DNA of 64,000 bases, from the NCBI GenBank assembly GCA_947303895.1, contig CAMYZQ010000001.1:5779-69778 (forward strand). Reading direction: 5' to 3'. Positions within the stretch are counted from its first letter, which is position 1. Every line of letters starts with the position of its first letter. Shown one piece after another: positions 12,616-30,700 of the stretch. The position numbers and the translations under genes were made by a program. The notes under the pieces are model-generated. The model was not told where the DNA came from. It saw nothing but the letters and a program-made list of their open reading frames with translations, and ran no database searches. The DNA comes from an uncultured Bacillota bacterium (GTDB taxonomy: Bacteria > Bacillota_I > Bacilli_A > RF39 > UBA660).

Positions 12616-12622
12616 TTAATTA

Positions 12623-12922
12623 TTGGATAAAATAATGCAAGAATTTAACAAAGTTACTACAACATCAAACTTTATAAAAAATCTTTTAATTAGTACATAT
12701 TTACCACTAATAAGAACAGTAAGAGACTTTGATTATATAATTGAAGGTAGATTATATGTTTATAAATGCGAGATTATAAAATGTACTAAAAGTGGCTATA
12801 TTGTTACTGGATTTAAAAATGTAAAATTTGATGGTGATAGGGCTACTTACAGAGTTATAACTGAATATTATTTTGGTGATAAGAATGATAAGTTATGCAC
12901 CAATTCACGAGAGATTAGGTAA
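12623..12922 (+). CDS. hypothetical protein (99 aa)
   Basis: ORF overlapping the next gene by ~40-50 nt. Confidence 0.35.
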   Translation: MDKIMQEFNKVTTTSNFIKNLLISTYLPLIRTVRDFDYIIEGRLYVYKCEIIKCTKSGYIVTGFKNVKFDGDRATYRVITEYYFGDKNDKLCTNSREIR

Positions 12923-14945
12923 ATATCTCAGAAGTCTTAGAGATATGTATGACTTAAATCTTATGCCATTATATAATTGTTTTAGTAATAAGATATTACA
13001 AGTACATCATATATCTAATTCAGGTATAGAAAGAACGTCTGCAGATTATAATACAAAAGTATATAAAGTTCCGATTAGGTTTAATACGGATTATACTATA
13101 TGTATGGATAATTTAGGTGTTACTACATTCGCTCCAGCATTTATTAAGAATAATAATTTAATATTATTGAATAATACGCGCTTTGGAAATGGTGTAGATG
13201 CTACTAATAAGTATATTAAACTGCATAGAACAGATGTTATACAAAATAAATCTAATATGAGGTTTAAAGCCCCTATTGTTATTAGGTATAATAACATACC
13301 TGAAACTAAAAAGGTAACTTATTTTGAAAAATCTGTAGCTGTGCTTGATTATTTACATAATGATAATTATTATGTAGAACTATATGAAAATGCTTTACCA
13401 AGAGTATTTTACTATATTAGGAATGATGGTATTTATGATCTTGCACAAGACCTTACATATGAAGAATTTATAGCAAATAAAACTAAGTATTATTATTCAG
13501 ATAATGGTGTTATAAAAAGATGTACTGCAGATAGTGAGTTTGATAGTGATAAACACTATTATACATTAAAAACAAGTGCTACAGGCCATACATATTTAGT
13601 AACAAATTTAACTCCAGAAACAGCTGAAGATACTCAATTATATATAGGTGTAGAACCTGCAACAGGCAGAATAGATTCTACATTTAATATGAATAAAAGG
13701 TATTTCTGGAGAGAAGGTAAAACCATATATACTGATATTGAAACTTGGCAAATAGATGATACATTATATATGGACGAAGATGAATTATCTGCTTCTTATG
13801 ATGATGATAATAAAACTATAGAATTAGTTACTGATGCAACTAGATTGTATGACGCGCCAGATTTCCAAACAGTTTGTTTATGGGATAGATGTTCTAAATA
13901 TCACACATATAGTACATCAGAAGTATATTATACAAGAACTAATGGTGTATTTGAAGTTTGGAATTATGAATTAGGCGAAGAAACATTTAATAAAAATAAG
14001 ACTTTCTATTATATACAAAATGCAGATGGTCAGTATATACAATGTTCTGCTGGTGATACATATTCAAGTACTACACAATACTATGTGTATATGAATGAAG
14101 AATATATAACTGTTGCCGAGTACTATTTCATTATGAATACTACTGATTTCTATTTAGCAACAGGTTTTAGACAAAAGCCTGAAACATACTATATATTAAC
14201 AAATGGAGAATTTGTACAATTAACTGGTACTGCTGTATTTGATATGAATTCTACATATGCTATAAGACCTAGAAGAGAAACTTTCCCTTGGAGAGTTAAA
14301 GATGAATCTGGTAGCTTAGTACCTACTTCTGATACATATATGGTAGAAGGTACAGTATATTATTCAAGTTATGATCAAGAAATAGCTAAACAATATGTAT
14401 ATGACATAACTGAAGAAAATTGTGCTTTATATGATTACTTAGAAGATAATTTATATCTTTTAATACAAGTACCAAAATCATATGATGCTAGTATAGTAAT
14501 ATTAGAGGGTAATTATACTAATACTCAATCAGAAAAAATATTAGATGATTCTGAAGTTGAAATGCTACCAGCAACACTTGTTGATTATTTATATACATCA
14601 AGTTTAAAACTTATGGAAATGCCATATTCAACACAAGTTCCATTTTCAGATACATTGGTAGAATTCTTGCTATGGAATGCTATTAATAATCTTGATAGTA
14701 TAAATAATAATATGGATAGATTGTTATTAGCTATGAGTAAAGTATTAGATAATACATTTGGTGCTAATCATTTTGCTAATTATTGGTATCCACAATATAG
14801 AAAATTAGTAAGTGATATTGGTAGAAATTATAATAATATTGTAGTTACTGATAATTTAGGTTATGTAACTAAGAATCTTGAACAAGTCATTAATACTACT
14901 AGAAACAGTGATTCGTTTATAAATGATTATCCGTATGGGAATTAA
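12873..14945 (+). CDS. Tyr/Thr/Asn-rich tail or baseplate structural protein; the true start is probably the ATG at 12885
   Basis: The first large ORF after the TMP; the track start is TTG; ATG 12885 is preceded by GGTGA; the composition is rich in Y/T/N/D, as in distal tail or baseplate proteins. Confidence 0.4.
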   Translation: MVIRMISYAPIHERLGKYLRSLRDMYDLNLMPLYNCFSNKILQVHHISNSGIERTSADYNTKVYKVPIRFNTDYTICMDNLGVTTFAPAFIKNNNLILLNNTRFGNGVDATNKYIKLHRTDVIQNKSNMRFKAPIVIRYNNIPETKKVTYFEKSVAVLDYLHNDNYYVELYENALPRVFYYIRNDGIYDLAQDLTYEEFIANKTKYYYSDNGVIKRCTADSEFDSDKHYYTLKTSATGHTYLVTNLTPETAEDTQLYIGVEPATGRIDSTFNMNKRYFWREGKTIYTDIETWQIDDTLYMDEDELSASYDDDNKTIELVTDATRLYDAPDFQTVCLWDRCSKYHTYSTSEVYYTRTNGVFEVWNYELGEETFNKNKTFYYIQNADGQYIQCSAGDTYSSTTQYYVYMNEEYITVAEYYFIMNTTDFYLATGFRQKPETYYILTNGEFVQLTGTAVFDMNSTYAIRPRRETFPWRVKDESGSLVPTSDTYMVEGTVYYSSYDQEIAKQYVYDITEENCALYDYLEDNLYLLIQVPKSYDASIVILEGNYTNTQSEKILDDSEVEMLPATLVDYLYTSSLKLMEMPYSTQVPFSDTLVEFLLWNAINNLDSINNNMDRLLLAMSKVLDNTFGANHFANYWYPQYRKLVSDIGRNYNNIVVTDNLGYVTKNLEQVINTTRNSDSFINDYPYGN

Positions 14946-14948
14946 TAA

Positions 14949-15638
14949 ATGGCTATAAGTGTAAAAAGAAAATCAAATTTAGGAATACCAACCGAAAATT
15001 ATATAGTTTTACATCATTTGCCAGCAGACCACCCTGCTCACAAGCTCATAATACCTGTTGATCCAGACGCTATTTCTGATAGTATGGGGGCTTCGTTTGC
15101 TGAAAATACTCCTTTAAGTAGGAGTGCTCCTATCTATTCATATCAGCATTCTGGACCAAGAAGTGTGCAGGTAAGTTTTACACTGCATAGGGATTTATGT
15201 AGAGAGTATAATCCTGGTGTTGATGATATGGTAGATGCATTAGTAACAAATTTAGATGCTTTAGTGCTACCTGATTATGATTCTGCTAGTAAAATAGTAA
15301 ACCCACCTGTTGTTTCATTAAAAATAAGAGATGAAATTTACATAAAAGGTGTAGTTACAGGTAGTGTTGGTGTTACTTATAGTTTGCCAATAATAAATTA
15401 TGGTACAGCTGATAAAGCAATATATAAATATGCTGTTGTTTCTATATCGTTTGGTGTGAGCGAAATTACTCCATATAGTGCTAGTATTTTACCTGATGTT
15501 GGTGGTAAGTACAGAGCTACTGCAGGGTTCACAGCTACTCCAAGCAATAGTAGTAATACATCTTCATCTACAAATTATTCATCAGTGTCAAGTAATACTG
15601 GTGGCGGTGGTAGTGTTCTGAGAGGTATGTATGTATGA
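14949..15638 (+). CDS. hypothetical baseplate-region protein with a Ser/Thr-rich C-terminus
   Basis: ORF; C-terminal TATPSNSSNTSSSTNYSSVSSNTGGGGS. Confidence 0.4.
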   Translation: MAISVKRKSNLGIPTENYIVLHHLPADHPAHKLIIPVDPDAISDSMGASFAENTPLSRSAPIYSYQHSGPRSVQVSFTLHRDLCREYNPGVDDMVDALVTNLDALVLPDYDSASKIVNPPVVSLKIRDEIYIKGVVTGSVGVTYSLPIINYGTADKAIYKYAVVSISFGVSEITPYSASILPDVGGKYRATAGFTATPSNSSNTSSSTNYSSVSSNTGGGGSVLRGMYV

Positions 15639-15964
15639 ATGTATTAACAAATAGAGCAATTAAATCAAGTAAATATTATTCAAGATATAATGGATTATCT
15701 TACTATTATAATAATTTAGATGATAAATATCAGCTTGAAACAAGACATTGGTTAAAAGAATTTATAGATACATCTAAAATTCAAACATACATAGTTAAAG
15801 AAAAAGATACTTATGATACTATTGCATTAGAATTTTATAATAATCCTACTTATTATTGGGTGATATGCGACTATAATAGAATCATTGATCCGTTTACTTC
15901 TCCAAAAGTAGGTACAGTATTATATTTACCATCACTAAATGCTGGATTGGAATTTGAAAAATGA
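15635..15964 (+). CDS. LysM-like tail protein (P2 gpX / PBSX XkdP-like)
   Basis: YIVKEKDTYDTIALEFYNNPTYYWVICDYNRIIDPFTSPKVGTVLYLP matches the LysM pattern (Y.V..GDTL..IA..Y......I...N.I..P....G..L.iP); the position matches XkdP-type genes downstream of the TMP. Confidence 0.5.
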   Translation: MNVLTNRAIKSSKYYSRYNGLSYYYNNLDDKYQLETRHWLKEFIDTSKIQTYIVKEKDTYDTIALEFYNNPTYYWVICDYNRIIDPFTSPKVGTVLYLPSLNAGLEFEK

Positions 15965-16500
15965 GTTATGAACTAGATGATGATATGAGGGAATTTTTAA
16001 TAAGGCATAAAGCTGAACTACAAAGAAATGATTTAAATGCAGTTTATACTGATATTCTTGATGAGTTTGGTAATGTATATATGCCGGAATTTACTAAATT
16101 TTTCTTAAGTAAGTGTATAAACCCATTAAAATATTTTAGTAAAACAATTCCTCAGGCTTGTTTTTATGAAATACCTGATATTGGAGAAAGATTAGAAATA
16201 AAACCAGGTACAACTGATATAGGTTTTAGTGCTTTTTTAAAATGTAATTCTTTAAAAGAAGTTTCTTTTCCAAGTTCTTTAGAGTATATAGGTAATAAAG
16301 CTTTTTATAACTGTATGCATTTAGAAAAAGTTTATTTTAGGTCTGAACTAACAGGTATGGGTAGTAATGTATTTGGATATTGCCCAAGATTATCAGATAT
16401 TTATGTACCTTGGTCACAAGATAGTGATGCTGATATAGAATCATTAGCACTATTTGGTATATATCCAGATACAAAAATTCATTATAATTCACACAAGTAA
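15961..16500 (+). CDS. BspA-type leucine-rich-repeat protein
   Basis: IGFSAFLKCNSLKEVSFPSSLEYIGNKAFYNCMHLEKVYF fits the F..C..L..I.IP.S.IG..AF..C 'LRR_5' repeat. Confidence 0.45.
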   Translation: MSYELDDDMREFLIRHKAELQRNDLNAVYTDILDEFGNVYMPEFTKFFLSKCINPLKYFSKTIPQACFYEIPDIGERLEIKPGTTDIGFSAFLKCNSLKEVSFPSSLEYIGNKAFYNCMHLEKVYFRSELTGMGSNVFGYCPRLSDIYVPWSQDSDADIESLALFGIYPDTKIHYNSHK

Positions 16501-18980
16501 TGGCTTACACATTTTCTAAAAGAGAAGGTCCAACTAAATATAGTCAAGTAAAAAACTTAACTTATTATGCAGCGCAAGGCTCATTAAATCCATTTGAGAT
16601 TAACCCGAGTACAGGTGGCAACTGTACATGGTGGGCTTGGGGCCGCTTTCTTGAAGTAATGGCTGTAGCTGGCCGTAGCTTAAAATGGAAATATGGCAGT
16701 GGAAACGCTTGTTCATTCTATAAAATAATGACTAATGGGGGATTATCTGGTGGTATAATCCCAAAGCCAGGCGCCATTGCTTGTTGGGGATATAATGGGG
16801 CCCCTGATGGTCCAAAAGGTAATCCTGGTCACGTAGCTTTTGTAGAGAAGGTAAATGTAGCTAAAGGTGAGATTCAAAGCATAGAAATATCTCAATCAGG
16901 TTGGTCTTCAGGCCCATTAAAAAATCAAACTTTATATCCGGGCAATGGACAGCGTGGTACTGGTGCTTGGAAACTTGGTTATTTAAATTCATATTTTAAT
17001 GGGTTTATTTATAACCCTGTAGATTTTGGAAATCCTTCAGGAATTTTAGCTGGCGGCACAGCTGATACAACTACTAGATCTAAAGAATGGTATATTTCTA
17101 AATATGGTACAGGTGCTTTAGTATATTTTGAATTACAAAAATATGGCTATTCACATAAAGCGTGTTGTGCAGTATTAGGTAATATGCAACAAGAGTCTGG
17201 TATAAGAGTTTATACTGGTGGTTCTTATGATGGTAATGGTTCTGAAGGCTTATGCCAATGGACATTTGGCAGAAAAACTGCTATGCAAACATATGCAGCT
17301 GCACATTCGGCTAGTGGCTCTTGGAAAAGTGTAGATGGACAAGTTGCATATTTAGTTTATGAATTAGAACATTCTGAAAAAGCTGCAAATAATGTTTTAA
17401 AAAATGATTCTTTATCCCTTGATGAAATGACAAAGGGATTTGAAGAAAAATTTGAGCGTGCTGGTGTACCTAATATGGAAGCCAGAATTAAATACGCTCA
17501 CGAATGGGACGTGAAAATGTCTGGTGCTGATGAAACTCTTGAAATGGTTTCATCAGTCAATATGCAGCAGAGAATAAATAGATTATATTCATCTGATAAT
17601 TATAGATATATAAATCTTGGAGAATCTGAGTACAGTGCTGGCCTCGCACAAAGGTCTAACGAATTAACAACTAATTTAAAAAATTATATATCAAAAACAG
17701 CATTTTCTCCTATTAATGGAACAGCAGCTTTTCCTGAAGCTATTGTAGGCAGCGGTCCAGAGAAAACAGCGAAAGAAAAATTAATTACAACTAAAGCTTC
17801 ATTTAGTTTATCAGATGCTTTAGTACAAGCACCTTTTGTTGAAATAACATTAGGTGAATATGTAATTGGAAGCTATAAAGCTTCTACTGATGATTATCCT
17901 AATTATATATCTAGGTTAGATGTTAAAAAAATTAATGGAGAAATAAATCAATATACTATTGGTTTAGTATATCAAATAAGACCAGGTGAAGATCCAAATT
18001 TAATTGATAAATTATTATCAACTATAAGATATAATAAAATTTCAATTAGGTATGGAGATTGTGAAAGTGGTGCTTTATTTAAAGATTCAGAAGCAATCAT
18101 TACAAATGTAGTAAATAATAGGGATTATGCGGGGTCAAGAATTACATATACTATATATGCTACTTCTGCTTGCAATTATGTAACTAGTGCTACATTTGAT
18201 TTTAAGGCAACTGTTGATAAACCTTCTAATGTGATTAGGGATTTACTATATAATAATACTGAAACATCAGAATTATTATTATCTGCTTTCCCTGGTATGA
18301 GAAATCTTACAGAAGTTAATAGTAAAAATTGGTTACCAACTAATGATACAGTATTAAATATAGCTGCAAAAGATAATAAAAATGTATTATCATATATTAA
18401 CTATTTAGTTGGTTGTATGAGTAATGTAACTAATAGTATTGATGATGTAATAAGAAATTCTTCTTATTTCATTACATACGAAGATAGTACTAATGGTGCT
18501 TATTTTAAAATAAATGAATTAAGTAAAGCTAATAAAGCATCAGCACCTACTAATAATTTATTTGAAATAACAGTTGGATTTCCTGATGGGAATGATATTT
18601 ATGATTTCAAAATAAATAATAATGAAGCGTGGTCTATGCTTTACAAAACTGAGTCTGTTTCTAGTGAATACTTATATGGTATAAATAATGCAGGTCAAAG
18701 TACTTTACAATATTCACCTAATCTTGTAGGTTCATCAAATATATTAAATGAAATTCAAAAAAATTGGTGGACTCAAATGACTACATACCCAATATCTGCT
18801 CAATTAACAATGAGAGGATTATTAAAACCTATTTCGTTAATGGATTATGTTCAAGTAAATGTAGTATTTTATGGTCAAAAACATATTTCAAGTGGGTTAT
18901 ATGCAGTTACAGGTCAACAAGATGTATTATCTGGTAGTGGTTTCTTAACTAATTTAAGTTTACTAAGAGTTGGAGATTAA
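16500..18980 (+). CDS. tail-associated lysin paralog 1: CHAP peptidase + phage-tail-lysozyme-like domain + conserved ~460-aa C-terminal structural domain (possible hub/gpD-like)
   Basis: CHAP signature GGNCTWWAWGRF...GHVAFVEKV; a second domain CAVLGNMQQESG...GLCQWTFGRK resembling TMP/tail lysozyme domains; a C-terminal region starting LYSSDNYRYI and ending SGLYAVTGQQDVLSGSGF..LSLLRV that is shared with the next two ORFs. Confidence 0.7.
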   Translation: MAYTFSKREGPTKYSQVKNLTYYAAQGSLNPFEINPSTGGNCTWWAWGRFLEVMAVAGRSLKWKYGSGNACSFYKIMTNGGLSGGIIPKPGAIACWGYNGAPDGPKGNPGHVAFVEKVNVAKGEIQSIEISQSGWSSGPLKNQTLYPGNGQRGTGAWKLGYLNSYFNGFIYNPVDFGNPSGILAGGTADTTTRSKEWYISKYGTGALVYFELQKYGYSHKACCAVLGNMQQESGIRVYTGGSYDGNGSEGLCQWTFGRKTAMQTYAAAHSASGSWKSVDGQVAYLVYELEHSEKAANNVLKNDSLSLDEMTKGFEEKFERAGVPNMEARIKYAHEWDVKMSGADETLEMVSSVNMQQRINRLYSSDNYRYINLGESEYSAGLAQRSNELTTNLKNYISKTAFSPINGTAAFPEAIVGSGPEKTAKEKLITTKASFSLSDALVQAPFVEITLGEYVIGSYKASTDDYPNYISRLDVKKINGEINQYTIGLVYQIRPGEDPNLIDKLLSTIRYNKISIRYGDCESGALFKDSEAIITNVVNNRDYAGSRITYTIYATSACNYVTSATFDFKATVDKPSNVIRDLLYNNTETSELLLSAFPGMRNLTEVNSKNWLPTNDTVLNIAAKDNKNVLSYINYLVGCMSNVTNSIDDVIRNSSYFITYEDSTNGAYFKINELSKANKASAPTNNLFEITVGFPDGNDIYDFKINNNEAWSMLYKTESVSSEYLYGINNAGQSTLQYSPNLVGSSNILNEIQKNWWTQMTTYPISAQLTMRGLLKPISLMDYVQVNVVFYGQKHISSGLYAVTGQQDVLSGSGFLTNLSLLRVGD

Positions 18981-18982
18981 TT

Positions 18983-21685
18983 TTGGCGAATCCAGCATGG
19001 GTAGAAAATGCAAATAAGTGGGCTAGAAATATAGCTAGTGATAATACTTATCATTATAAAAAATGGACAAGTGATACAAAGACACATTATTGTCCAATAT
19101 GTAAAGGGTATCCAGTTACATCAACTGATAGAAGTACTTCTTCTAGTACTTCTATAAAAGGTTATCATGGTTGGAATTGTATTGGATTTGCTTCGGCAAT
19201 CTGGCATCATGGAGGAGGACTTAAAAATAAATGTAGTCCAAGTATGATATCTGATCAAGTTGGAAATAAACTGCTTCAATTTTCTGATGCTGAAGCGCTT
19301 AAAGTAGCTAAAGATAAAATTGGTTTAAGTGATATTCAAGTAATTAGAAATAAAAAGGGAATACCTAAGAGTCAGTGGCAAGCTGGAGACATTTGTTTAA
19401 AATTTAGAGGTGAAACATATGCACATATGTTTTACTATATGGGTAATAAAGAAATTGCCGATGCTACAGGTTCTAATGGTAATGTTTCTCCTAAAAATCA
19501 AATAGCTATAAGAAGTTGGGATAGTTATTCTGCAAAAATAATTATTAGATATACTGGTCAAGGTGGAAATAATTTAGTAACTACTACTAGTAATGGAAAT
19601 ACTAATTTATTTATTTTCTCTCAACCAGTTAAAAGAATATCTACTTGTGCTCAAGATGTAATAAATGGGGCTTGTGCTTGGGCTGAAGCCATAGCGAATG
19701 ATAATAGATTTCATTACGGCTATGGTAAACCAGCTCACCACAATGGCTGCTACTTTTGCGGTACAAATACACAGAAAGGTGGCAGAGCTAAAACGGGTAT
19801 AAAAAACTATGAGTTTACCTATTGTTGCAACCCGTTTGTACACGCTGCTTTCTCGCATGGTGGTGGTGAACCTACTATGCTTAAAATATGCCAAAAAGGT
19901 TCTTCATATGATTACCATAAAGGTAAGGGGTATGATAGTTCATCACTGTTTAGAAATTTAGGGCATCCTGCTAAGAGCACATTACAAAAGGGTGATGTAC
20001 TTTGTAAAGACAATCACGTAGCCCTTTACATTGGAAATGGTCAATTAGCTGAGGCTAGTGGAGGAGACGATAATGTACCAGGTTCAAGTAAATGGAATAA
20101 ATCTATTCACGTTGGTACATTAACAGATTCTAGATATAATGGATTTAAACGAGTACATAGATATATAGGTAATGGTGGTGGCGTCATGGATATTCCTGGT
20201 CAAGAAGGTATATCTGCAGATTCTGGCCTTGGTATTGATATGCGTCAAGCCATAACCACTCTGTACTCATCTGATAATTATAGATACATAGCACAACAAG
20301 AAGAAGATGAAGTAGCTAATAAAATTTCAAGGTTTAGAGATGATTTAAAATTAGCACTTGCTAAGACCAATTTTGAAACTGCTACAGTTACTACTGGTGC
20401 ATATAAGGAACCTTTAGTTACTCAGCAAGTTGAATTAGCTGAGTTTGAAAAAGATAAACCTAAGAAAATTTTAACTGGCAAAGCTACAAATTTATTATCT
20501 TACCCAACACTTGTAGAGGCACCAACAATAGTACTAGATTTTAATGGTATTAAAATAGGTGGTTATGGTAATGTAGGAGATAAATATCCAAATTACATAA
20601 CCTCAATGTCTGTTAAAAAAATTAATGGTAGAATAAATCAATACACAATTAATTTATCATATCAAGTAAGGTTTGGAGAAGATCCAAACTTTATAGATAA
20701 ATTAATATCAAGAACTGGATATACAAATCCTCTTAAAATATTATATGGTGATTCTAATTTCCCAAGTGGTTATTATAGGGAAGAATCAGCTGTAATAATG
20801 AACGCCACACATTCAGAAGATATTAGTGCTTATAGAATAAATTATTCTATAACTGCTATATCTTCTATTGGTGTATCAGCAACTTCATTAACTACATATC
20901 CAAGGCAGTATGCAAAACCTTCTACTGCAATATATAATTTATTATATAATTCAGGTGAAATAAGTAAAAGTTTGCTTTCAATATTTCCTGGAATGCACAA
21001 TAAAACATTAGTTGCTAGTAAAAATTTAATACCAACAAATGATAATATGGTTATTATAGGTGGTATGGAAAATGTAAGCCCATTAACCTATTTATCCTAT
21101 TTAGTTGCTTGTATGAATAATTCTATAAATAAATCATCTTATTATTTAAGCATAATAGATAATTCATATAGTGAGTTTAATGGCTCATACTTTAAAATAA
21201 ATGAAGTCATAAGCTATAATGATCAGAATAGTAACATAGAAATAAGTTCAAATTATTATGAATTAGATATTGGTTTTCCTTCAAATAATTATATAACAAA
21301 TTTTCAGATTTGTAATAATAACTATTGGTCTTTAGTATATGATTATACAGGAGATATACCAAAATTTGAATATGGTATAGATGATAATGGAGATTTAATA
21401 GAAAGAAAAACAAATATTTTATATAGAAGAAATAAGTTTGGAGAAACTAGTTTAATAAATTCTAATTGGTGGAAACAGGTAACTGAATTCCCAATATCTG
21501 CTAAGGTAACTATTAAGGGATTAATTAATCCAGCTATATTAATGTCATACATAAAAATAAATGCATTGTTTTATGGAGAAAGAGATATGGCTAGCGGATT
21601 ATATGTAGTTACTGCACAAGAAGATTCAATATCTGGGTCTGGATATACTACAGAATTGACATTATTAAGAGTAGCTGGAGAATAA
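18983..21685 (+). CDS. tail-associated lysin paralog 2: two tandem NlpC/P60-or-CHAP-like cysteine peptidase domains + shared C-terminal domain
   Basis: Two repeats of W(A)..IA.DN..HY ... (W/Y)xC..F..A..HGGG ... GD.(L/C)K..H(V/A).(A/M).Y.GN (Cys/His papain-like pattern); the C-terminal ~460 aa align with 16500..18980 and 21685..23907 (LYSSDNYRYI...YPNYI.S..VKKING.INQYTI.L.YQ...GEDPNFIDKL...NWW.QVTEFPISA...GLY.VT.Q.D..SGSG). Confidence 0.65.
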   Translation: MANPAWVENANKWARNIASDNTYHYKKWTSDTKTHYCPICKGYPVTSTDRSTSSSTSIKGYHGWNCIGFASAIWHHGGGLKNKCSPSMISDQVGNKLLQFSDAEALKVAKDKIGLSDIQVIRNKKGIPKSQWQAGDICLKFRGETYAHMFYYMGNKEIADATGSNGNVSPKNQIAIRSWDSYSAKIIIRYTGQGGNNLVTTTSNGNTNLFIFSQPVKRISTCAQDVINGACAWAEAIANDNRFHYGYGKPAHHNGCYFCGTNTQKGGRAKTGIKNYEFTYCCNPFVHAAFSHGGGEPTMLKICQKGSSYDYHKGKGYDSSSLFRNLGHPAKSTLQKGDVLCKDNHVALYIGNGQLAEASGGDDNVPGSSKWNKSIHVGTLTDSRYNGFKRVHRYIGNGGGVMDIPGQEGISADSGLGIDMRQAITTLYSSDNYRYIAQQEEDEVANKISRFRDDLKLALAKTNFETATVTTGAYKEPLVTQQVELAEFEKDKPKKILTGKATNLLSYPTLVEAPTIVLDFNGIKIGGYGNVGDKYPNYITSMSVKKINGRINQYTINLSYQVRFGEDPNFIDKLISRTGYTNPLKILYGDSNFPSGYYREESAVIMNATHSEDISAYRINYSITAISSIGVSATSLTTYPRQYAKPSTAIYNLLYNSGEISKSLLSIFPGMHNKTLVASKNLIPTNDNMVIIGGMENVSPLTYLSYLVACMNNSINKSSYYLSIIDNSYSEFNGSYFKINEVISYNDQNSNIEISSNYYELDIGFPSNNYITNFQICNNNYWSLVYDYTGDIPKFEYGIDDNGDLIERKTNILYRRNKFGETSLINSNWWKQVTEFPISAKVTIKGLINPAILMSYIKINALFYGERDMASGLYVVTAQEDSISGSGYTTELTLLRVAGE

Positions 21686-23907
21686 TGGCTGATAGAAAAC
21701 TTGAAAAACTTGAATATAGTAAAACAGTTAACTTACCTTCAGGTGATGGTTATACGCCACAATCTTTAGCTCTTGTTGATGCTAATAAGAGATATGTAAT
21801 ATGTTCAGGATCATCACCTAATATTGTATTGTTATGTAGTGCTAATTCATATTCAAGTTTGGGTAAGAAAATTGGGACTGGCCACGCTAATGGTGGAACA
21901 TATTGTAGTAAAAATGGCTGTATTTATACCACAGCTTATCATGGTAGCAGTAATAATAAAAAAATTGTAGTTACAAATGTATCAAATCTTAAAACAGCAT
22001 TTACAGTTAATTTAAAAACAAATGCTACAGGTATAGCGTATGATAGTGTAACTGATCAATTTTATGTTTCTGCTGGTTCAAAAATATATGTTTACCCATT
22101 TGATGCTTTATCAAAAGGTGGGGAAAGTGGCCCATATATTTCTTCATTTACAAAAAATTGGACGAGCGACAATAGAGATAATCAAGATGTTGGTGGCCAT
22201 AACGGCGTTGTTATGGTTTGTCGTTCTTTTGAAAAAACCAAAAAAGGTAAAGTTCAAAGAAGTTTTATTGATTGTTATAATGCAGCTAGTGGTGAATATT
22301 TAAAATCATATTATTCTGATTATGGAGAGTTAGAAAGTGTAGCTGTTGATGCTAGTGGAAATATGCATATCATATTTGCACAAGACAGAAAAATAGTTAA
22401 AACTACTAACATATTTAATCTTGTATGTGCTGAAGGTGCTGCAGCTACGGCTAATTCAATGGGGCTAGCTGTAAGCCCTGATAAACTATATAGTTCTGAT
22501 AATTATGAATATTTGACTCTGGATTTTAATGAAAGTGAATCTTCTATAAAATTCAGAAACGCTTTAAGAGATACTTTAAACAAATGGTCTGAAACAGGGT
22601 TTACACCTATACTTGATACAAAAGCTATTTCTGAAGCATTAACAACTTCTGGTGCCAATGATTCTTCAAGATTAAGAAAAACTAAAATTGAGGGTGAGGT
22701 ATTTGGTCCAGCTTTGCCTACTGCATTAAATCCAGTTGAAGCTCCATTTATAGAATTAACTATAGGTGAATATACATTTGGTGCATATGATAAATCTAAA
22801 AAATTTGATAGATATCCAAATTATATTGATAGTATGTCTATAGTTAAAACTAATGGTTCTATGAATGAATATACTATAAATTTGGTACATCAAGTAGCTC
22901 CTGGTAGCAACCCAAATTTTATAGATGAATTATTATCAAAAAATGGGTATGATAAAATCAGCATTAGATATGGAGATGCTAATAGTAATATAATTTTTAA
23001 TGATAATAATGCTCTTCTTATTGGAGTTAATGTTGGTTTTGATTTTGTAAATTGTAAAATAAATTATGTAATAAGGGCAACTAGCTCTGCTATTGCTATT
23101 GCTTCACATAAGAGAACATTTAGCAGTGTAGAAGATAAACCATCTAATATTATTAGAGATTTATTATATAATGATGCTAATGAGGACTTATTAAATGCAT
23201 TTCCTGCTATGCGTGATAGGAATTTTGTAGAGAAAAATAATTTAATTCCTAATGATGATATGGTAGTTAATGTAGAAGAATTTAAAAATGTAAATGTGGT
23301 TTCATATTTAAAAAATTTAGTTTCTATGATGAAGAGTATAACAAGTGATATTGTTGATTCTAACTACATATTAACTATAGAAGATGGTTATTTTAATATA
23401 AATGAAATTTCAACTAATTACATTTATGATTCTTCTTTATATGAAGTGAATATAAATTTCCCTGATGATAATCAAGTATTTAATTTTAATGTAAATACAA
23501 ATTATAGTTGGCCTATTGCCTATGAGTATGGTAGTGGTGTTTCAAATTATAATTATGAAATTACTAATCAGGGAGATTTAAAAAGGTTTAATACTAATTC
23601 TACTAATTTACTTGATTACTCCAGTCAAATGATGTCAAACATAAATTCTAACTGGTGGACTCAAGTAACAGAATTCCCAATTTCAGCTACCTTAACTTGC
23701 AGAGGTTTATTATCTCCGCTATTACTGTTGACATATATAAAAATTAATTGTATATATTATGGTAGTGATAGAATAAATAGTGGAATATATATTGTAACTG
23801 GACAAACAGATACTTTGAGTGGTTCAGGATTTCAAACAACATTGTCATTATTAAGAGTGGCAGGTGCAAAACAGCACTTAATAGTTGACGGGAGAGTAAG
23901 AACATGA
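21685..23907 (+). CDS. tail-associated paralog 3: N-terminal beta-rich (propeller-like?) domain + shared C-terminal domain
   Basis: The C-terminal ~460 aa are homologous to the two preceding ORFs; the N-terminal 250 aa are unrelated and rich in G/S/Y/V repeats; the ATG overlaps the upstream stop (TAATGG). Confidence 0.55.
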   Translation: MADRKLEKLEYSKTVNLPSGDGYTPQSLALVDANKRYVICSGSSPNIVLLCSANSYSSLGKKIGTGHANGGTYCSKNGCIYTTAYHGSSNNKKIVVTNVSNLKTAFTVNLKTNATGIAYDSVTDQFYVSAGSKIYVYPFDALSKGGESGPYISSFTKNWTSDNRDNQDVGGHNGVVMVCRSFEKTKKGKVQRSFIDCYNAASGEYLKSYYSDYGELESVAVDASGNMHIIFAQDRKIVKTTNIFNLVCAEGAAATANSMGLAVSPDKLYSSDNYEYLTLDFNESESSIKFRNALRDTLNKWSETGFTPILDTKAISEALTTSGANDSSRLRKTKIEGEVFGPALPTALNPVEAPFIELTIGEYTFGAYDKSKKFDRYPNYIDSMSIVKTNGSMNEYTINLVHQVAPGSNPNFIDELLSKNGYDKISIRYGDANSNIIFNDNNALLIGVNVGFDFVNCKINYVIRATSSAIAIASHKRTFSSVEDKPSNIIRDLLYNDANEDLLNAFPAMRDRNFVEKNNLIPNDDMVVNVEEFKNVNVVSYLKNLVSMMKSITSDIVDSNYILTIEDGYFNINEISTNYIYDSSLYEVNINFPDDNQVFNFNVNTNYSWPIAYEYGSGVSNYNYEITNQGDLKRFNTNSTNLLDYSSQMMSNINSNWWTQVTEFPISATLTCRGLLSPLLLLTYIKINCIYYGSDRINSGIYIVTGQTDTLSGSGFQTTLSLLRVAGAKQHLIVDGRVRT

Positions 23908-25055
23908 TACAAAAAGGTATAATTGAAGCTATTATATCTTCATATGAATATAAAGTAAGAATACCGAGGTATGATAAATTAATTACTACTCCTGGTGCTG
24001 TATCTACTGAAGATTTATCAAGTGCTATAGTATGTTCTATACCTAGTACTAAGGTTTCATTTGCAATAGGTGATATAGTTCTTATTGGATTTGAAAACGA
24101 AGAATTAAATAAACCAATAATATTAGGGCTTTTATATAGGCAAGGGCTCACAGATTCTGAACAATTTAGTGTTCCCTCTATACAAGAATTATTAGACAAA
24201 TTAGAGAATGAAATATCTGTATTAAGAGATAATAATTTATATACACATATAAAATATTCTAATGACAATGGTATAACATTTACATCTTTATATGAATATA
24301 CAGATGTAAATACAGTGTCAACCAGTCAAAATACATATAGAGGTGCTAGTGATATAATTATAGACCCAAACTCTACTGTGATATATTGGTCTGTTATTAA
24401 TTCTGAAGGTGTTGATGTTACTTCTACAATGAATATAACTACAATATTATCTACAGATGATAATTCAACATTAGTAGAAAGTTTTACAGAGCCTCTTATA
24501 AATATACCTTTAAAATTTAGAGGTTTAAATAATTTAAAATTGTCCTTTAGAATATTACAGGTAGTAGATTATGATAATTATCATATAGTTTTAACTACAG
24601 ATAAGAATACAATAGGCAGTGTATATGGAGATTATTTAGGTATTTGTGTTTCTACAGACCCAATTCCACCATTAACACCATCTTCCTACTCATGGTCATC
24701 ATTTTATAGAACAATTTATTATCTCGTAAATGAATTAGAAAATTCTTTATTACCTCGTATAGAGCGTAATGAAAAAGCTTTATATGGTTATACATACTCC
24801 GATGCCATTAGAGATACAGATAGTACTGGGTTGCTTGATGGAGTAAGGGTAGAAAAAGATGCCATTCACATACACGGATCGGAAAATAAGAGTGTTTATT
24901 TAAGTATTAACAATACTATGTTTATAGATAATAATGCTGATAATTTTACACTTAGAGATTTAGAATATACAAATGTATCTGCAGATTCTGTATTTTCAGA
25001 TTCATATAATGAAAAAGGACATTTAGCGTTGTCAAGAAGGAAAAGGGTTCGTTAA
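23904..25055 (+). CDS. baseplate spike protein (P2 gpV / VgrG-like OB-fold N-terminus with a C-terminal extension)
   Basis: YKVRIPRYD...SSAIVCSIPSTKVSFAIGDIVLIGFENEELNKPIILGLLY matches the gpV family pattern (..vrV.....s.W..v......G....P.vGdeVlv.F..Gd...P...G.ly). Confidence 0.55.
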   Translation: MIQKGIIEAIISSYEYKVRIPRYDKLITTPGAVSTEDLSSAIVCSIPSTKVSFAIGDIVLIGFENEELNKPIILGLLYRQGLTDSEQFSVPSIQELLDKLENEISVLRDNNLYTHIKYSNDNGITFTSLYEYTDVNTVSTSQNTYRGASDIIIDPNSTVIYWSVINSEGVDVTSTMNITTILSTDDNSTLVESFTEPLINIPLKFRGLNNLKLSFRILQVVDYDNYHIVLTTDKNTIGSVYGDYLGICVSTDPIPPLTPSSYSWSSFYRTIYYLVNELENSLLPRIERNEKALYGYTYSDAIRDTDSTGLLDGVRVEKDAIHIHGSENKSVYLSINNTMFIDNNADNFTLRDLEYTNVSADSVFSDSYNEKGHLALSRRKRVR

Positions 25056-25058
25056 TAA

Positions 25059-27191
25059 ATGGGTGCTTCCTTACATTTATCAGTATCAGAAAGTAATGTA
25101 GATTATAATGCTAATACTTCAGTAGTTACTGCTACATTGAAAATAACTGCTACAGGCTCAACTTGGAATGGCTATAAGCAAAGTGGTTATATTACAATAG
25201 ATGGCACTAAATATACTTTTTCAAGTTCTTTTGCTAAAGGTAAGACCACAACACTTGCTACAAAGTCTAAGACAGTAGCTCATAATGCTGATGGTACTAA
25301 AACAGTATCAGTAACTGGATATTATAAAACAGGTGTTTCTGCTGGTAATCTTTCCAAGAGCACAACTATAACATTAACTGCTATACCAAGATATTATTAT
25401 GTCTACTACAATACGAATGGTGGTGATGGTTATTTCCCAACACAGACAAAATACTATGGTAGTGGTTTAACTTTATACGGACACACACCTACTAGAACAG
25501 GCTATGATTTCTTATATTGGTCTGGCTATGGCGGGAATTATGCTCCTAGTGGTGTTTATCCATATGACACTTCCACTACCATGACAGCAGTTTGGGCTGA
25601 AAAGTCTGCTACATTAACATACTATAATAATGGTCATGGTACATTTCCTATACCAGGTAAAGGTACTACAAGTAGTGGCTCATCATATAGAGTAACCATG
25701 AGGTATTCAGCAGCTACTACGGCTATAAGTATGTCTGAAACAGGTTATACCTTCAATGGTTGGACTACTGGTCGTAGTGGTAGTGGTACACGATATAATG
25801 CTGGCGATGTTATTAAGCCAGTTAATCAAATACCTTCTGCACTCAGTTTATATGCACAATGGTCTGCAAATAAGTATACTATAGCATTTAATGGTAATGG
25901 TAATACAGAAGGTTCTCCACCTGAAGATATGGAAGCCACATATAATAGTGCATTTGTATTTCCTACAGCTCCACAAGATCTTAAAAAGACTGGATATGAG
26001 TTTAAAGGTTGGGCAACAACACCAGATGCTGGAGATCCTCAATATCTTGCAGGGGATTCTATAACTTGGAAAATTGCTTCAGGTATGACTTATTATGCCG
26101 TTTGGGGAGATATATTCATACCTATATACTATTATAGAAATACAGTAGAAAATGTTTTCGATAAAACAAATACATATTCTCTGTATTATTCTGATAGTGT
26201 ACATATTAATTATGATTATGAAATACCAAATATAGCATTACCAAATCTAGATAATTACACATTTTCAGGATATTGGTCATATGGAAAACCAAATGACATT
26301 ACATATACTGAATTTGGTATGACATTTCCTACTGGTGTAGTACCTCATAATTATGAAAAATATTTAGTAAATAAGGGGTTTTTAACAGCGGGGTCTACAA
26401 TAGAAAATGTAGAAGCTGATGTATATTTATATCCTATTTACATAGATAATACTCCAAGTGTTATATCAAAATTATATTCTTCATATGAATATGTACCAGA
26501 TGTAATTACACAGCAAGATTATTATTTATATCTTACCAACCAAGTTGCTTCTATACAAACATCAATTTCTGATGAAAATGTAGTTATGGCTACAAAATTT
26601 AGAACTTCTGCTGGTAATTATGGTGTAGCATTAGATGTTTCTAATATTTCTTATTCATTACAATCTGATGACACTACACCAATAGATATAAATTTAAATC
26701 CAGTATTATATAAATCAGATTATAATACTAATTTAAACACACAAGACTTTTATTTAATATTTAAAACAACAGGTCAGCCTGGTGGTATTCTTGTAGATTA
26801 CGCTACTACAAGTTATATATTAAATGTTTCTGGTATTAAAGATAGTTTTGGTAAAACCATAGAAGATGTACTATTAATTATATCACCACCTAAATTGGTA
26901 AGGGATATTAATTATAATGGAGATGCTATAGCTTTCTTTGATGAAGCACCAGATTATACAGATGAAGAAAAACTAATACATACAGAAGATGAATTATGGA
27001 TAAATGGTCTAGCTTTTTCTAATAATTTCTTACTACATGATGAACCAACAGATCCTGAAGAGACCTATGGTCCTTATGCTTTGCAATTATTAGATACTGG
27101 CAATATAACATCTGAAGAAATGGATAGTCTATATACAGTTGATAATATAGACCTTTCAAAATTGTTATTATTAATATTAAGCAAATTATAG
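25059..27191 (+). CDS. tail/baseplate protein with at least three Flg_new (Listeria-Bacteroides) repeats; candidate adhesin or receptor-binding protein
   Basis: Repeats PTRTGYDFLYWSG...MTAVWAEK / SETGYTFNGWTTG...LSLYAQWSANKYTI / KKTGYEFKGWATT...YYAVWGD fit t.tGY.F.GW.t.....y......i....tLYA.W. Confidence 0.6.
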   Translation: MGASLHLSVSESNVDYNANTSVVTATLKITATGSTWNGYKQSGYITIDGTKYTFSSSFAKGKTTTLATKSKTVAHNADGTKTVSVTGYYKTGVSAGNLSKSTTITLTAIPRYYYVYYNTNGGDGYFPTQTKYYGSGLTLYGHTPTRTGYDFLYWSGYGGNYAPSGVYPYDTSTTMTAVWAEKSATLTYYNNGHGTFPIPGKGTTSSGSSYRVTMRYSAATTAISMSETGYTFNGWTTGRSGSGTRYNAGDVIKPVNQIPSALSLYAQWSANKYTIAFNGNGNTEGSPPEDMEATYNSAFVFPTAPQDLKKTGYEFKGWATTPDAGDPQYLAGDSITWKIASGMTYYAVWGDIFIPIYYYRNTVENVFDKTNTYSLYYSDSVHINYDYEIPNIALPNLDNYTFSGYWSYGKPNDITYTEFGMTFPTGVVPHNYEKYLVNKGFLTAGSTIENVEADVYLYPIYIDNTPSVISKLYSSYEYVPDVITQQDYYLYLTNQVASIQTSISDENVVMATKFRTSAGNYGVALDVSNISYSLQSDDTTPIDINLNPVLYKSDYNTNLNTQDFYLIFKTTGQPGGILVDYATTSYILNVSGIKDSFGKTIEDVLLIISPPKLVRDINYNGDAIAFFDEAPDYTDEEKLIHTEDELWINGLAFSNNFLLHDEPTDPEETYGPYALQLLDTGNITSEEMDSLYTVDNIDLSKLLLLILSKL

Positions 27192-27326: not shown

Positions 27327-27701
27327 ATGTATTCACTTGCATTTCCAAATATGTTTAATGGTTCTACAGTAAATTTATATAAAGATTATGATGCTGTAAA
27401 AAGTAATCTAAGAAATTTATTGTATGCTAATAGGGGTGGATTATTTGGAGATCCACATTTTGGTACTAATATTAAACATATATTATTTGATCAAGCTGCT
27501 GATGATATTATGAAAGAGCTTGTAAAAGATGACATATATGAAGCTATATTATCTTATATGCCACAAACAACTATAGACAGAGACTATATAGACGTTTTTG
27601 TTCAAGATACTTTCGTGTCAGTTACAATTAAAGCTAAAAATGATTTAGGTGTTGTTTCTGATTTATTAAAGATAGAATTACTTAATACTGATGAAAATTA
27701 A
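27327..27701 (+). CDS. baseplate wedge protein gp25 / GPW family
   Basis: GGLFGDPHFGTNIKHILFDQAADDIMKELVKDDIYEAI matches the gp25/W signature (G.....P.FGs.l..l.F.p.......l...i..al); 124 aa; SD AGGGGAAA upstream. Confidence 0.65.
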   Translation: MYSLAFPNMFNGSTVNLYKDYDAVKSNLRNLLYANRGGLFGDPHFGTNIKHILFDQAADDIMKELVKDDIYEAILSYMPQTTIDRDYIDVFVQDTFVSVTIKAKNDLGVVSDLLKIELLNTDEN

Positions 27702-27713
27702 GGAATAAATTAA

Positions 27714-30700
27714 ATGGCACAAGACATTGTTAATGAAAATCAAAAAATTTCTTATACCAATTTAGATTTCTCTTCAATTTATACTGAAGTAATAGATTTA
27801 ATTAAGCAACTTACCTATAGATGGGATCCTTCCATATCAGATGAATCTGACCCAGGTGTTGTTTTAGTAAAACTATCTTCATTAATTGCAGATAAATGCA
27901 ACTATAATATTGATAAGAATATTTTAGAAACATTTCCACTTTCTGTTACTCAGAATGGTAATGCCAGACAACTGTATGATCAACTCGGTTACTATATGAA
28001 TTGGTATGAAAGTGCTTCTGTTCCAGTGTTATTGAGCTGGGTAGGAGAAACTAATGATAGTTCTGTATCTTATACTATACCTAAATTTACAGCAATAACA
28101 GATTCAGAATCAAGCCACATTTATTCTTTAATTGGTGCTGAAGGTACTGATGATGTAATAGTATCTGATACAATATTACCTGCTGATGGTAATGCAGTAA
28201 CAGTTATAGCAATGGAGGGTACTCCAGTTCAATATCAATTTGAAAATGAGACTGTTATTACTACTCAAATGGTAGATCCAATATCAAGAAGATTATATTT
28301 TCCACATTCTTATGTATCTCAAAATGGAGTATTTATAAAGAACACTAATCAGGAAAATTACGCTTCTTGGAAAAGAGTTAATAACTTATATGAAAATTCA
28401 TATAATGAATTAAGATATGTTTTTGGCTATGATAGTAATACTGATACTTGTTTTTTAGAATTTCCAGATAATTATTCAGAATTATTTGGAAGCGGCATTG
28501 AGATTACATATTTAGTAGTACCTCAAGAAACAACTAATATTCCAGCACAAGCATTAAATAGTTTCTTAGCACCTATTGCTGTAGGTGGAGATGCTGGCAT
28601 AGTTTTAGATTCAAGTAATGTTAAAATTGTTAATTATGTAGCTGCTTCAGGTCATAAAGATATTGAAAGTATAAATGATGCTTATATTAATTATAAGAGA
28701 ACAGTTGGTACTTTCAAGACATTAATTACATTAAGAGATTATTTAAATTATATTAGAAGCCAGGAGCTTGATATTTGTTCAAACGCCTTTGTATGTGATA
28801 GAACTAATGATATTCAGTCTACATACAAAATTATGAGCAGTAATCATGATTTGGACACAATAATTGTTAAAGTAGAACAATTATTAGATAAAACAACTTT
28901 AGAATCTACATTTGACTACAAGTTTGTAAAAACATCAGATATTAATATAAATCCTTCAAAGACATATTATACAATATCTAATAATAATACATTATCTGAA
29001 GTTACTACACCTGTGCTCAGTGATTTAAGTACTTACTATGAATTATCATCAGTAGAACCAAAATATGTAGATGCATTAAGTCCATTTTCTCTTAAGTTCT
29101 ATTTACTTAGAAAAGCTATAGCTTTAAATAGCAAAACAGCATATAATCAAACATTCTCTATGATGAAAACTTATCCAGAGTTTGATTCATTATTAGAGGG
29201 TACATCACATCTTGAGCATACATATGAAGATATTCTGCCTTTAGGTGAGAATACATATATTAAATCAAATGATGATATGTGGTATGATAACAAATCATAT
29301 TGGTTATATGATTCTGAAGAAGATATTTATGAGTTAATTTCTGATACTTCTGTATTTGATGGAACACCAGCTAGCCTATCAAATGTATATAATATTGATG
29401 TAGAGGCACTTCTCCCTCATACAGTAATGTTTAAAGGTGTATATCCAGTTACATTAAATATATCTACATATAATGTATTAGATGAAGATACACAAGCAGA
29501 TATTTCGAGTAATATTATTTCAAGCTTATATTCTAATGTGAATAGTTCACAAGTGGATTTTGGTTTACCAATTTCTATAGACTATTTAGTTGAAATTGCA
29601 AAAAATAGTGATGATAGAATTAAAAATGTTACTATAGATCCGATAGAATATTCTTTATTTGCTACATATTATGACAAGAATGAAGATATTTATGTAGATG
29701 TAGAACTTAACAGTGATACGGATTCATTAACTCCAGTATCGCAAAGAAGTATTTCAGATATTGTATCTGCATTAATGAAAAAAGACATCATATGTAAATC
29801 AATATTAGCTGGTACTACACAGTTATTAGTTCCAGATGATACCTTCATATATCATTTGAGCCAAAAATATTTAGATTACATTGATGGTATAAGTAATATT
29901 ACAGGTGAAGCTATAATAGATGTACAGAATGATTCTGTTACTTCATATTCATTAGATAATGAAGATTCATTTATAAGAAAAGCATATACATTAAAGGATA
30001 ATGAAGTAGTATCCATTTATAGACCAAAATTTAATGCTACAAAAACATTTCCAAATAATGTACATTTTGAATATGTATTATATAATGATATTACTGCTGA
30101 TTCTTCTTATAAATTAAATAGTAATGAATATTTCATATTATATAATCCAATAAAAGATGATGATGCTACAACTATTATTGGTTATACAGTTTATGCTTGT
30201 AGTGCTGGTGCAATAATTCACTCTACATTTGATATACCAAAACAAACATCTTTATCAGCATTATCTGGGTTTGCTAGAGCTAGAGTAGTAACTTATTTCT
30301 CAGTTAATCCTACAAAGAATTATTATGAATTATCCACTTATAATGAGAATTATAAGACGGAAATAAGAAATAGTTCTGCAATCATAAATAATGCAATATC
30401 TGGTACAAATGAGATTCAAATACAAGAAGTTTCAACTATAACACTTGATAGAGAAGATAAATATAAATTCTTCTGGATATTAAATGAACCAACATATTCA
30501 AACAATTCAAATTTAAAGTCATATACTTTATTTGATAATTTTGATAGTGTAAATGATAATAATTCTTCAGAAGTTATAAATACTTATACTTTAAGAAACG
30601 GTGAAGCATTGTTCTACACTAATGAGTCTGCTACAGATTTTGCTATGCTCGGCCCTGGTACAACACTTATCAGAAACTGTGGTGTTGAGTCTTCAATATA

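Follow-up and report, generated by a model that had tools for sequence, protein, structure and literature searches.

In the structures of phage 812, A-1(L), diffocin, phiCD508 and Goslar the baseplate hub is a homotrimer (C3 in Goslar) that sets the match between the three-fold and six-fold symmetries of the baseplate. Where the literature on Mysterious and A-1(L) speaks of a 'heterotrimer', the term refers to accessory or wedge proteins. Fusions of hub and lysin in a single gene are already known. The hub of Staphylococcus phage 812 / phage K (Kayvirus; PDB 9euf_E) is a homotrimer encoded by one gene and bears a C-terminal CHAP domain; the enzyme domains of diffocin are C-terminal as well, and both the diffocin hub-hydrolase CD1368 (PDB 8v3w_H) and the cyanophage A-1(L) hub gp15 (PDB 8kea_A) stack their activities on one homotrimeric subunit. 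Minimal hubs, namely those of Mu (gp44), P1 (gp6), pyocin R2 and phiCD508 (an XkdQ-related protein), are enzyme-free products of single genes with a length of ~310-335 aa. The T6SS VgrG proteins offer the likeness of several gp27-type paralogs that each carry a different effector domain, one of them peptidoglycan-targeting, such that mixing diversifies the payload of one spike. Heterotrimers of V. cholerae VgrG1/2/3 were reportedly described by Pukatzki et al. in 2007. Mixing is not universal, however, as Serratia VgrG1 and VgrG2 form no heterotrimers under native conditions (PMC4924876). Our literature searches for heterotrimeric hubs and hub paralogs turned up no phage case, and no description of a conserved hub made of three paralogs came to light.

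Here, we analyzed a window of 64,000 nucleotides, the whole stretch of DNA under study, from an uncultured contractile-tailed phage of ~29% G+C. It encodes three consecutive paralogs, A, B and C:

16500..18980, + strand: hub paralog 1 (A, 826 aa), CHAP, Phage_lysozyme2, neck and hub domain (ORF, Pfam, position-1 clade 200/200)
18983..21685, + strand: hub paralog 2 (B, 900 aa, starting at TTG), with a pair of NlpC/P60-like domains ahead of neck and hub domain (ORF, Pfam, BLASTP, position-2 clade 200/200)
21685..23907, + strand: hub paralog 3 (C, 740 aa), with a beta-propeller ahead of neck and hub domain and a private tail at the C-terminus (ORF, BLASTP, position-3 clade 200/200)

All three ORFs were found at exactly these coordinates, and GGAGA is present upstream of the TTG start of B. 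The first-pass annotation had described their spacing as free of gaps or with overlaps of only 1-4 nt. The junctions along the block read TAATG, a 2-nt gap (A ends at 18980, B begins at 18983), TAATG and ATGA. The colinear C-terminal region that had been noted in all three ORFs was recovered by pairwise BLASTP over ~470 aa with 39-43% identity and E values of the order of 1e-86 to 1e-115 (3e-86 for the pair without A), and every motif quoted for it earlier is found in the alignment. It begins at the LYSSDNY motif (A362, B427, C268) and is made up as follows:

17568..18977, + strand: shared region of A, a neck of ~80 aa (LYSSDNY motif, amphipathic helix, disordered linker) followed by a gp27/gp44-type hub core of ~385 aa
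20246..21682, + strand: neck and hub domain of B (BLASTP to A E 5e-111; hmmsearch)
22471..23865, + strand: neck and hub domain of C (BLASTP to A E 6e-115; hmmsearch)

The neck was modeled at low confidence (pLDDT 40-60). Pairwise BLASTP of the N-terminal parts gave only E>1, and by this comparison of sequences the N-termini are unrelated to one another, as the first-pass annotation had held.

The shared domain is a baseplate hub of the gp27/gp44/XkdQ type, a relationship visible at the level of the fold only. Its fold is that of a multi-domain hub, two tube-like beta-barrels included, and agrees with the earlier proposal of a gp27/gpD-type hub. No sequence match to any hub family, including Phage_GPD, was obtained in Pfam, PHROG or PDB, the PDB profile search matched the CHAP part but not the hub part, and the phage 812 / phage K hub has no detectable sequence similarity to the shared region. 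The missing match to hub families in Pfam, PHROG and PDB would suit a fibre or receptor-binding domain instead of a hub. This reading, which the first-pass annotation had named as one that would refute its own, we regard as barely credible. The block lies in the slot of a hub, with tape-measure, tube-initiator and LysM genes before it and spike and gp25-like genes after it, and in single-copy relatives the hub gene occupies the same slot. The hub-type location originally proposed, between a LysM gene and the spike, therefore holds. The neighboring genes are:

14949..15638, + strand: 229-aa protein, possible tube initiator (weak, sub-threshold CIS_tube match, E 0.057; conserved position)
15635..15964, + strand: LysM / gp53-like small baseplate protein (Pfam LysM E 6.5e-5; PHROG baseplate wedge E 7.5e-9)
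15961..16500, + strand: BspA-type LRR protein within the baseplate module (Pfam LRR_5 E 1.5e-19; also in relatives L001/L002)
23904..25055, + strand: 383-aa probable central spike, directly 3' of the hubs (weak Phage_base_V OB match, E 0.011; weak VgrG match, E 0.076)
27327..27701, + strand: gp25-like sheath initiator / wedge protein (PHROG baseplate wedge E 3.6e-11; weak GPW_gp25 match)

Both the possible tube initiator and the probable spike were assigned from matches below threshold. In VgrG proteins gp27 and gp5 are fused, extensions are C-terminal and the copy number depends on the species. Here, in contrast, the shared domain stops where the hub core does, an ORF of its own encodes the OB-like spike, and the number of copies is fixed at three. 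The block also differs from the single homotrimeric hub gene of the phage 812 and diffocin type in that three ordered paralogous genes carry N-terminal modules with enzymes that differ per paralog, so that activities stacked on one subunit in diffocin and A-1(L) are here spread over three.

We then examined the N-terminal modules, each of which had been taken for a different cell-wall hydrolase, giving three peptidoglycan-degrading activities. For A and B this was confirmed, with hub core and hydrolase on one polypeptide:

16614..16886, + strand: CHAP domain of A, aa 39-129, Cys42/His111 (Pfam E 1.2e-10; residues kept in CHAP-type orthologs)
17133..17507, + strand: phage tail lysozyme domain of A, aa 212-336, QQESG with Glu233 (Pfam PF18013, Phage_lysozyme2, E 9.7e-28; QESG/QESN conserved in orthologs)
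19001..19576, + strand: first NlpC/P60-like domain of B, aa ~7-198, Cys66, His148, Asp160 (internal repeat E 6e-13; phrog_329 match at aa 60-182)
19610..20245, + strand: second NlpC/P60-like domain of B, aa ~210-421, Cys281/282, His345, Glu357 (Pfam PF00877, 30.5 bits)

The CHAP domain (PF05257) scored 42.2 bits against a gathering cut-off of 26, and has the catalytic Cys/His pair; in third place stands Gln132 rather than the usual Glu. This domain and the lysozyme domain are those predicted for A at the outset. In B, the second domain exceeded its gathering cut-off of 23, and the first was recognized only through its internal repeat with the second. As the two halves are 27% identical, the N-terminus consists of two tandem papain-fold domains, in line with the original description, and both have Cys and His at aligned positions. 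The absence of catalytic Cys/His, which had been named as an argument against the hydrolase assignments, was thus not observed in A or B. The N-terminal modules are freely exchanged even among 97%-identical phages: the first NlpC/P60-like domain of B is missing in such a relative (L005/L016). Pattern scanning was done on the position-1 alignment, the 28-sequence hub alignment being too diverse.

C carries no recognizable hydrolase, and for this paralog the claim of a hydrolase failed. Its N-terminus had also been called beta-rich and possibly propeller-like, and this part was upheld:

21685..22434, + strand: five-bladed beta-propeller domain of C, aa 1-250
23866..23904, + strand: position-3-specific 13-aa C-terminal tail, AKQHLIVDGRVRT, consensus xx[QE]x[LI]xxDGRVxT (10/10 position-3 orthologs, none at positions 1 and 2)

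The module is all-beta and resembles glutaminyl cyclases and, from S. aureus phage phi11, the receptor-binding protein platform (PDB 5efv_A); it shares the five-bladed beta-propeller fold of the phi11 Gp45-like receptor-binding propeller. A word-indexed search returned two fragments only, and relatives were therefore taken from an exhaustive search of representatives; a BFVD fold search gave generic propeller matches only. In other proteins the domain co-occurs with CHAP plus PG_binding_1, M23, NlpC/P60 and lysozyme domains, a context that points to a cell-wall glycan-binding module as its most likely function.

Among related metagenomic phages, exactly three tandem hubs are present in 10 lineages and exactly one in 12; two or four were found in none. 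The copies at positions 1, 2 and 3 each form one clade (bootstrap 200/200). The triplication is ancient and ordered, as all ten multi-copy lineages have three genes in identical order with no later loss. A, B and C evolve at similar rates. Across all 30 hub sequences 69 columns are at least 90% conserved. At the 80% threshold no more than 6 columns distinguish the three paralogs by fixed differences, which leaves no obvious signature of three specialized interfaces.

As relatives have either a single copy or exactly three, three different subunits probably make up the three-fold cap. We consider it likely that A, B and C, hub paralogs with N-terminal cell-wall modules, form one A:B:C heterotrimeric hub in this contractile-tailed phage, with 1:1:1 co-assembly as the presumed stoichiometry; the heterotrimer with three degrading activities that the first-pass annotation had suggested is thereby supported in part. 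Counting against this reading are the scarcity of paralog-specific columns, the failure of Serratia VgrG1 and VgrG2 to mix, the C-terminal placement of the enzyme domains in phage 812 and diffocin, the low-confidence neck, and the sub-threshold matches behind the spike and tube-initiator assignments. An unlikely but serious alternative is that each paralog is homotrimeric or that the three mix at random, yielding a virion population with different lysin sets as bet-hedging against varied cell walls, much as T6SS loads alternative VgrG spikes. The strict copy number is not predicted by such alternative hubs, as two or four genes would serve equally well, yet 10/10 multi-copy lineages have three. 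The complete hub fold in all three paralogs together with the 69 conserved columns implies that each may self-associate, and the few paralog-specific fixed differences, the module exchange among near-identical phages and the separate assembly of Serratia VgrG paralogs (PMC4924876) fit as well; the tail conserved at position 3 only does not, and translational coupling agrees better with a fixed stoichiometry than with alternative use.

It is improbable, in our estimation, that a single paralog caps the tube and that the remaining two, derived from hubs, serve at another place in the baseplate or as soluble or ejected lysins. Hub/Tal-like folds are indeed reused in varied tail contexts (Tal, lambda J-type and VgrG proteins), and C stands most apart, with its extra tail and without a hydrolase. 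Nevertheless, the same core motifs are retained at full length in all three, in the barrel regions and at the C-terminus as well, their evolutionary rates are similar, and the solved baseplates covered by the literature that we compared show no second site for a gp27-like trimer.

With slightly more reserve, we favor extending the heterotrimer to a widespread clade of uncultured phages, in which the tube cap would be an obligate A:B:C assembly of ancient paralogs. Such a cap would break three-fold symmetry at the core of the baseplate and allow a single tail tip to display as many as four or five distinct cell-wall modules, and position 3 would have gained a single-copy C-terminal tail with a role of its own. 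The hub trimer would cap the tail tube and hold the central spike, each N-terminal module being tethered to the hub core by the LYSSDNY motif, the short amphipathic helix and the flexible linker. A would supply a CHAP amidase/endopeptidase and a lysozyme-like glycosidase, B two NlpC/P60-type endopeptidases and C a glycan-binding propeller. Upon sheath contraction the wedge ring would open and the spike depart, while the hub would remain on the tube tip and, at this presumed moment of exposure, press bond-complementary hydrolases and the binding module onto the thick wall of what is probably a Gram-positive host. The hydrolases could then drill the path of the tube through the wall.

If true, this would be the first known case of a phage hub assembled from three different subunits, and baseplate symmetry could be sacrificed to diversify tail-tip enzymes, a phage counterpart of mixed VgrG spikes. 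The block would be a natural scaffold with lysin and binding modules visibly swapped among close relatives, of use in directing engineered tailocins or phages at Gram-positive walls, and the rule of three or one is a clear prediction open to testing.

Finally, we searched for relatives elsewhere. Megablast of the block against phage records gave no match to cultured phages, and the sole tblastn match was an unannotated 6.9-kb faecal fragment. Scans of GTDB genomes recovered no relative and hence provided no prophage or host clue. The related uncultured phages are ~135-160 kb in size, and their contig names suggest rumen and gut samples.

The window has a G+C content of about 29%, carries long ORFs nearly all on the + strand, includes a contractile-tail module and has no tRNA genes within positions 1-64000. 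In the tail module, our ORF calls agreed exactly with the three consecutive genes listed in the first-pass annotation, here termed A, B and C:

A, 16500-18980, + strand, 826 aa
B, 18983-21685, + strand, 900 aa, TTG start with GGAGA ahead of it
C, 21685-23907, + strand, 740 aa

At each junction, neighbouring genes either overlap (TAATG or ATGA) or leave a gap of 2 nt. The proteins are colinear from the motif LYSSDNY (A362, B427, C268) through to the C-terminus. Pairwise BLASTP of this region gave 39-43% identity (E 5e-111, 6e-115 and 3e-86), whereas the N-terminal parts compared with one another gave a best E of only about 1, as expected from the proposed common C-terminal region with unrelated N-termini. 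Since the copies are only about 68-76% identical at the DNA level, and only in patches, the paralogy is old, and recent duplication and assembly artefact are ruled out.

The shared region had zero matches in Pfam, PHROG and PDB sequences. In the metagenome protein database, a profile search retrieved 288 relatives; among the 120 matches listed, the domain is C-terminal in nearly all full-length proteins, behind a range of N-terminal wall-hydrolase modules (CHAP, Peptidase_C39_2, Phage_lysozyme2, M23, glucosaminidase, ELLD). An AlphaFold2 model built on an alignment of 45 of the metagenomic relatives reached a mean pLDDT of 74 and a pTM of 0.66. Residues 85-470, the core, were well modelled; residues 1-79, the neck, were of low confidence and comprise the motif, a helix (13-43) and a disordered linker. 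The following matches were obtained.

Matches of the shared domain, with score
P1 gp6, 19.5
A-1(L) hub, 19.2
AlgoCIS hub, 18.9
Neisseria and MuSo2 43-kDa tail proteins, 18.7 and 17.7
Pyocin R2 hub, 18.4
Mu gp44, 17.9
phiCD508 XkdQ-related protein, 17.1
Diffocin hub-hydrolase CD1368, 16.6
80alpha Tal, 15.4
Phage 812 hub, 15.3
VgrG1, 10.6

Because about 250-295 residues are aligned in most of these matches, which is most of the length of minimal hubs, the model identifies the shared domain as a gp27/gp44/XkdQ-type baseplate hub. Structure prediction thus upheld the proposed hub identity, and the matches to baseplate hubs exclude a fibre or receptor-binding protein fold. Elsewhere in the tail module, neither Pfam nor PHROG assigned any ORF to a gp27/gpD-type hub family.

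Gene order in the tail module
5599-7632, sheath
7644-8231, tube
9328-10083, T4_baseplate-family protein
10279-14945, two large proteins where the tape-measure slot is expected
14949-15638, 229-aa candidate tube initiator (weak, sub-threshold CIS_tube match, and position)
15635-15964, LysM/gp53-like protein
15961-16500, BspA-type LRR protein, 179 aa (LRR_5, E 1.5e-19)
16500-23907, hubs A, B and C
23904-25055, 383-aa candidate spike (weak, sub-threshold OB/VgrG-like matches, and position)
25059-27191, DUF859/Flg_new tail protein, 710 aa
27327-27701, gp25-like protein
27714-34388, giant protein, 2224 aa

The block had been placed between a LysM gene and a spike gene; a LysM/gp53-like gene does lie upstream, and the spike is a candidate by position and sub-threshold matches. 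The LRR gene, which separates the LysM gene from hub A, is odd for a baseplate core module; it occurs in the related metagenomic loci L001/L002 and is missing from L003, L014 and L015. Directly after the candidate spike gene, the 710-aa protein combines a DUF859 N-terminus with Listeria-Bacteroides (Flg_new) repeats and is likely a fibre or receptor-binding protein. The 2224-aa ORF, without a match in Pfam or PHROG, occupies the slot of a gp6/J-type wedge protein directly downstream of the gp25-like gene; in L001 the counterpart is 2150 aa long, but single-hub relatives have a shorter one of about 1290-1304 aa.

The N-terminal assignments for A and B were substantiated. A carries a CHAP domain (42 bits; Cys42, His111, with Gln132 where Glu is usual) and a Phage_lysozyme2 domain (97.5 bits; Glu233 within QQESG). 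B carries two tandem NlpC/P60-like domains with 27% mutual identity (E 6e-13) and Cys66/His148/Asp160 and Cys281-282/His345/Glu357 at equivalent positions. C was correctly described as beta-rich and propeller-like (confident all-beta model, pLDDT 90.9, pTM 0.88), but its N-terminal domain had no family match even at E=5, and the claim that each protein bears its own kind of hydrolase module fails for C in the window. Together the hubs carry one propeller and four hydrolase domains, which fall into three types. The non-catalytic partner of lysins is usually a cell-wall-binding module, and by this analogy we read the propeller as wall-binding; it may instead be an enzyme of some activity. Relatives of the domain numbered 99 in an exhaustive HMMER search; some of them are hub proteins at the third position, and the polar residues Q26, S27, N69, G70, Y119, D120, Q167, D168, D196, E215 and E217 are near-invariant. 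In L006, L007 and L011 a CHAP domain follows the propeller, and L009 has an N-region of similar length without Pfam match. The five-bladed propeller (21685-22434) is a mobile module without a Pfam family: in other relatives (P0136-P0160) it is internal or C-terminal, alongside CHAP + PG_binding_1, M23, NlpC/P60, Phage_lysozyme2, fn3 or Big_2.

No cultured relatives of the phage clade were found; the best sheath matches had 23-27% identity spanning only the C-terminal 36-43% of the protein. INPHARED held only a 6.9-kb fragment, and GTDB genomes yielded no relatives. By hub-domain protein match, the window is 97% identical to IMGVR_UViG_3300028048_003204 (67 kb) and Ga0256405_10001255 (JGI, 71 kb); related contigs extend up to about 135-160 kb. 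Metagenomes in ENA/Logan, IMG/VR and JGI supplied 46 related loci, in which hub copies were counted by searching the hub profile against three forward-frame translations with stops masked, the loci being oriented with the match on +. Wherever flanking sequence sufficed, a locus had either a single hub domain or a tandem of exactly three; apparent one or two copies in L017, L018, L020 and L021 reflect short contigs cut at one end.

Hub copies by lineage
Three copies, 10 lineages: window/L005/L016, L001/2, L006, L007/8/19, L009/10/20, L011/22, L012/24, L013, L015, L023
One copy, 12 lineages: L003/4, L014, L025, L028, L029, L030, L032, L034, L035, L037, L039, L040

None of these lineages had two or four copies. 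Single-copy relatives have one CHAP-hub gene in the same slot (LysM gene, hub, small spike-like gene, gp25-like gene). In L002 (9663-11899) the third gene is broken into ORFs of 284 and 424 aa and the DUF859 gene is also split, which could reflect assembly or frameshift errors, or decay.

Neighbour joining of 42 hub domains over 437 columns, with 200 bootstraps, placed the copies at positions 1, 2 and 3 each in a clade of their own and separated the triads as a whole from all single-copy hubs, every split at 200/200. The triplication was therefore a single ancient event, after which the order stayed the same, without loss or gain, while orthologs at the same position drifted apart to 47-51% identity; identity between paralogs is 36-38%. 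A 13-residue tail, xx[QE]x[LI]xxDGRVxT, is conserved at the end of all 10 position-3 proteins and absent from those at positions 1 and 2. In triad hubs the profile match begins at the first profile residues, LYSSDNY neck included; in single-copy hubs it begins only at profile position 27-86. On this fixed scaffold N-terminal modules are freely shuffled: by position, L012 and L013 carry CHAP / CHAP-or-C39 / lysozyme, and L015 glucosaminidase + M23 / lysozyme / M23. In L005/L016, 97% identical to the window in the position-1 hub domain, the second paralog, at only 685 aa (P0001), has no equivalent of B's first NlpC/P60 copy (window 18983-19600 against L005:11386-12033 and L016), a very recent gain or loss of a hub-borne enzyme module.

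Hub-lysin fusion is already established. The phage 812/phage K hub has a C-terminal, zymogram-active CHAP 'cleaver' (PMC13433997), diffocin CD1368 a C-terminal lytic transglycosylase plus endopeptidase (PMC13324602), and A-1(L) gp15 an endoglucanase plus peptidase (PMC10966104); the hub is a trimer in these solved structures and likewise in phiCD508 and Goslar. The three hub-lysins are each homotrimers from a single gene, whereas here there are three paralogous genes. We found no description in the full-text literature of a phage hub that is heterotrimeric or built of paralogs. The nearest functional analogue is the mixed VgrG trimer of V. cholerae, reportedly described by Pukatzki et al. in 2007.

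The first-pass annotation had proposed a heterotrimeric hub with three distinct peptidoglycan-degrading activities. One A, one B and one C probably do share a single hub: this best explains why the copy number is fixed at three, why the order is conserved and divergence congruent, why one paralog has a private tail, and why the genes are translationally coupled. As caveats, only six columns carry fixed differences that tell the three paralogs apart, and Serratia VgrG paralogs do not mix (PMC4924876). Alternative homotrimers or random mixing of subunits are rather unlikely, as they would not enforce 'three or one'; that one paralog is the true hub and the other two have been relocated seems improbable. 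A three-paralog hub is of solid interest for phage structural biology and offers a sharp, testable prediction. Phage 812 and diffocin suggest, by analogy, how an A:B:C hub would work: its enzymes would stay hidden in the extended baseplate until the baseplate opens and exposes them. With the hub riding on the tube tip, tethered CHAP and NlpC/P60 domains would cut peptide stems and the lysozyme glycan strands, while the propeller would hold the wall. Short amphipathic helices after LYSSDNY, suggested by sequence and the low-confidence helix, could bundle the three necks.

Two further observations concern the phages themselves. The single-copy hub gene of a 135-kb relative (L003:10001-12079, also L004) has nine in-frame TAG codons and a TAA end; since homologs have Gln opposite the TAGs, e.g. 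in YQV and NWWTQMTQFPI, TAG is apparently translated as glutamine in this phage. In the window, a 350-aa ORF adjoining a helicase gene (38682-39734) matches the PHROG beta-glucosyl-HMC-alpha-glucosyltransferase family (E 1.8e-10), which hints at glycosylated, hypermodified DNA.
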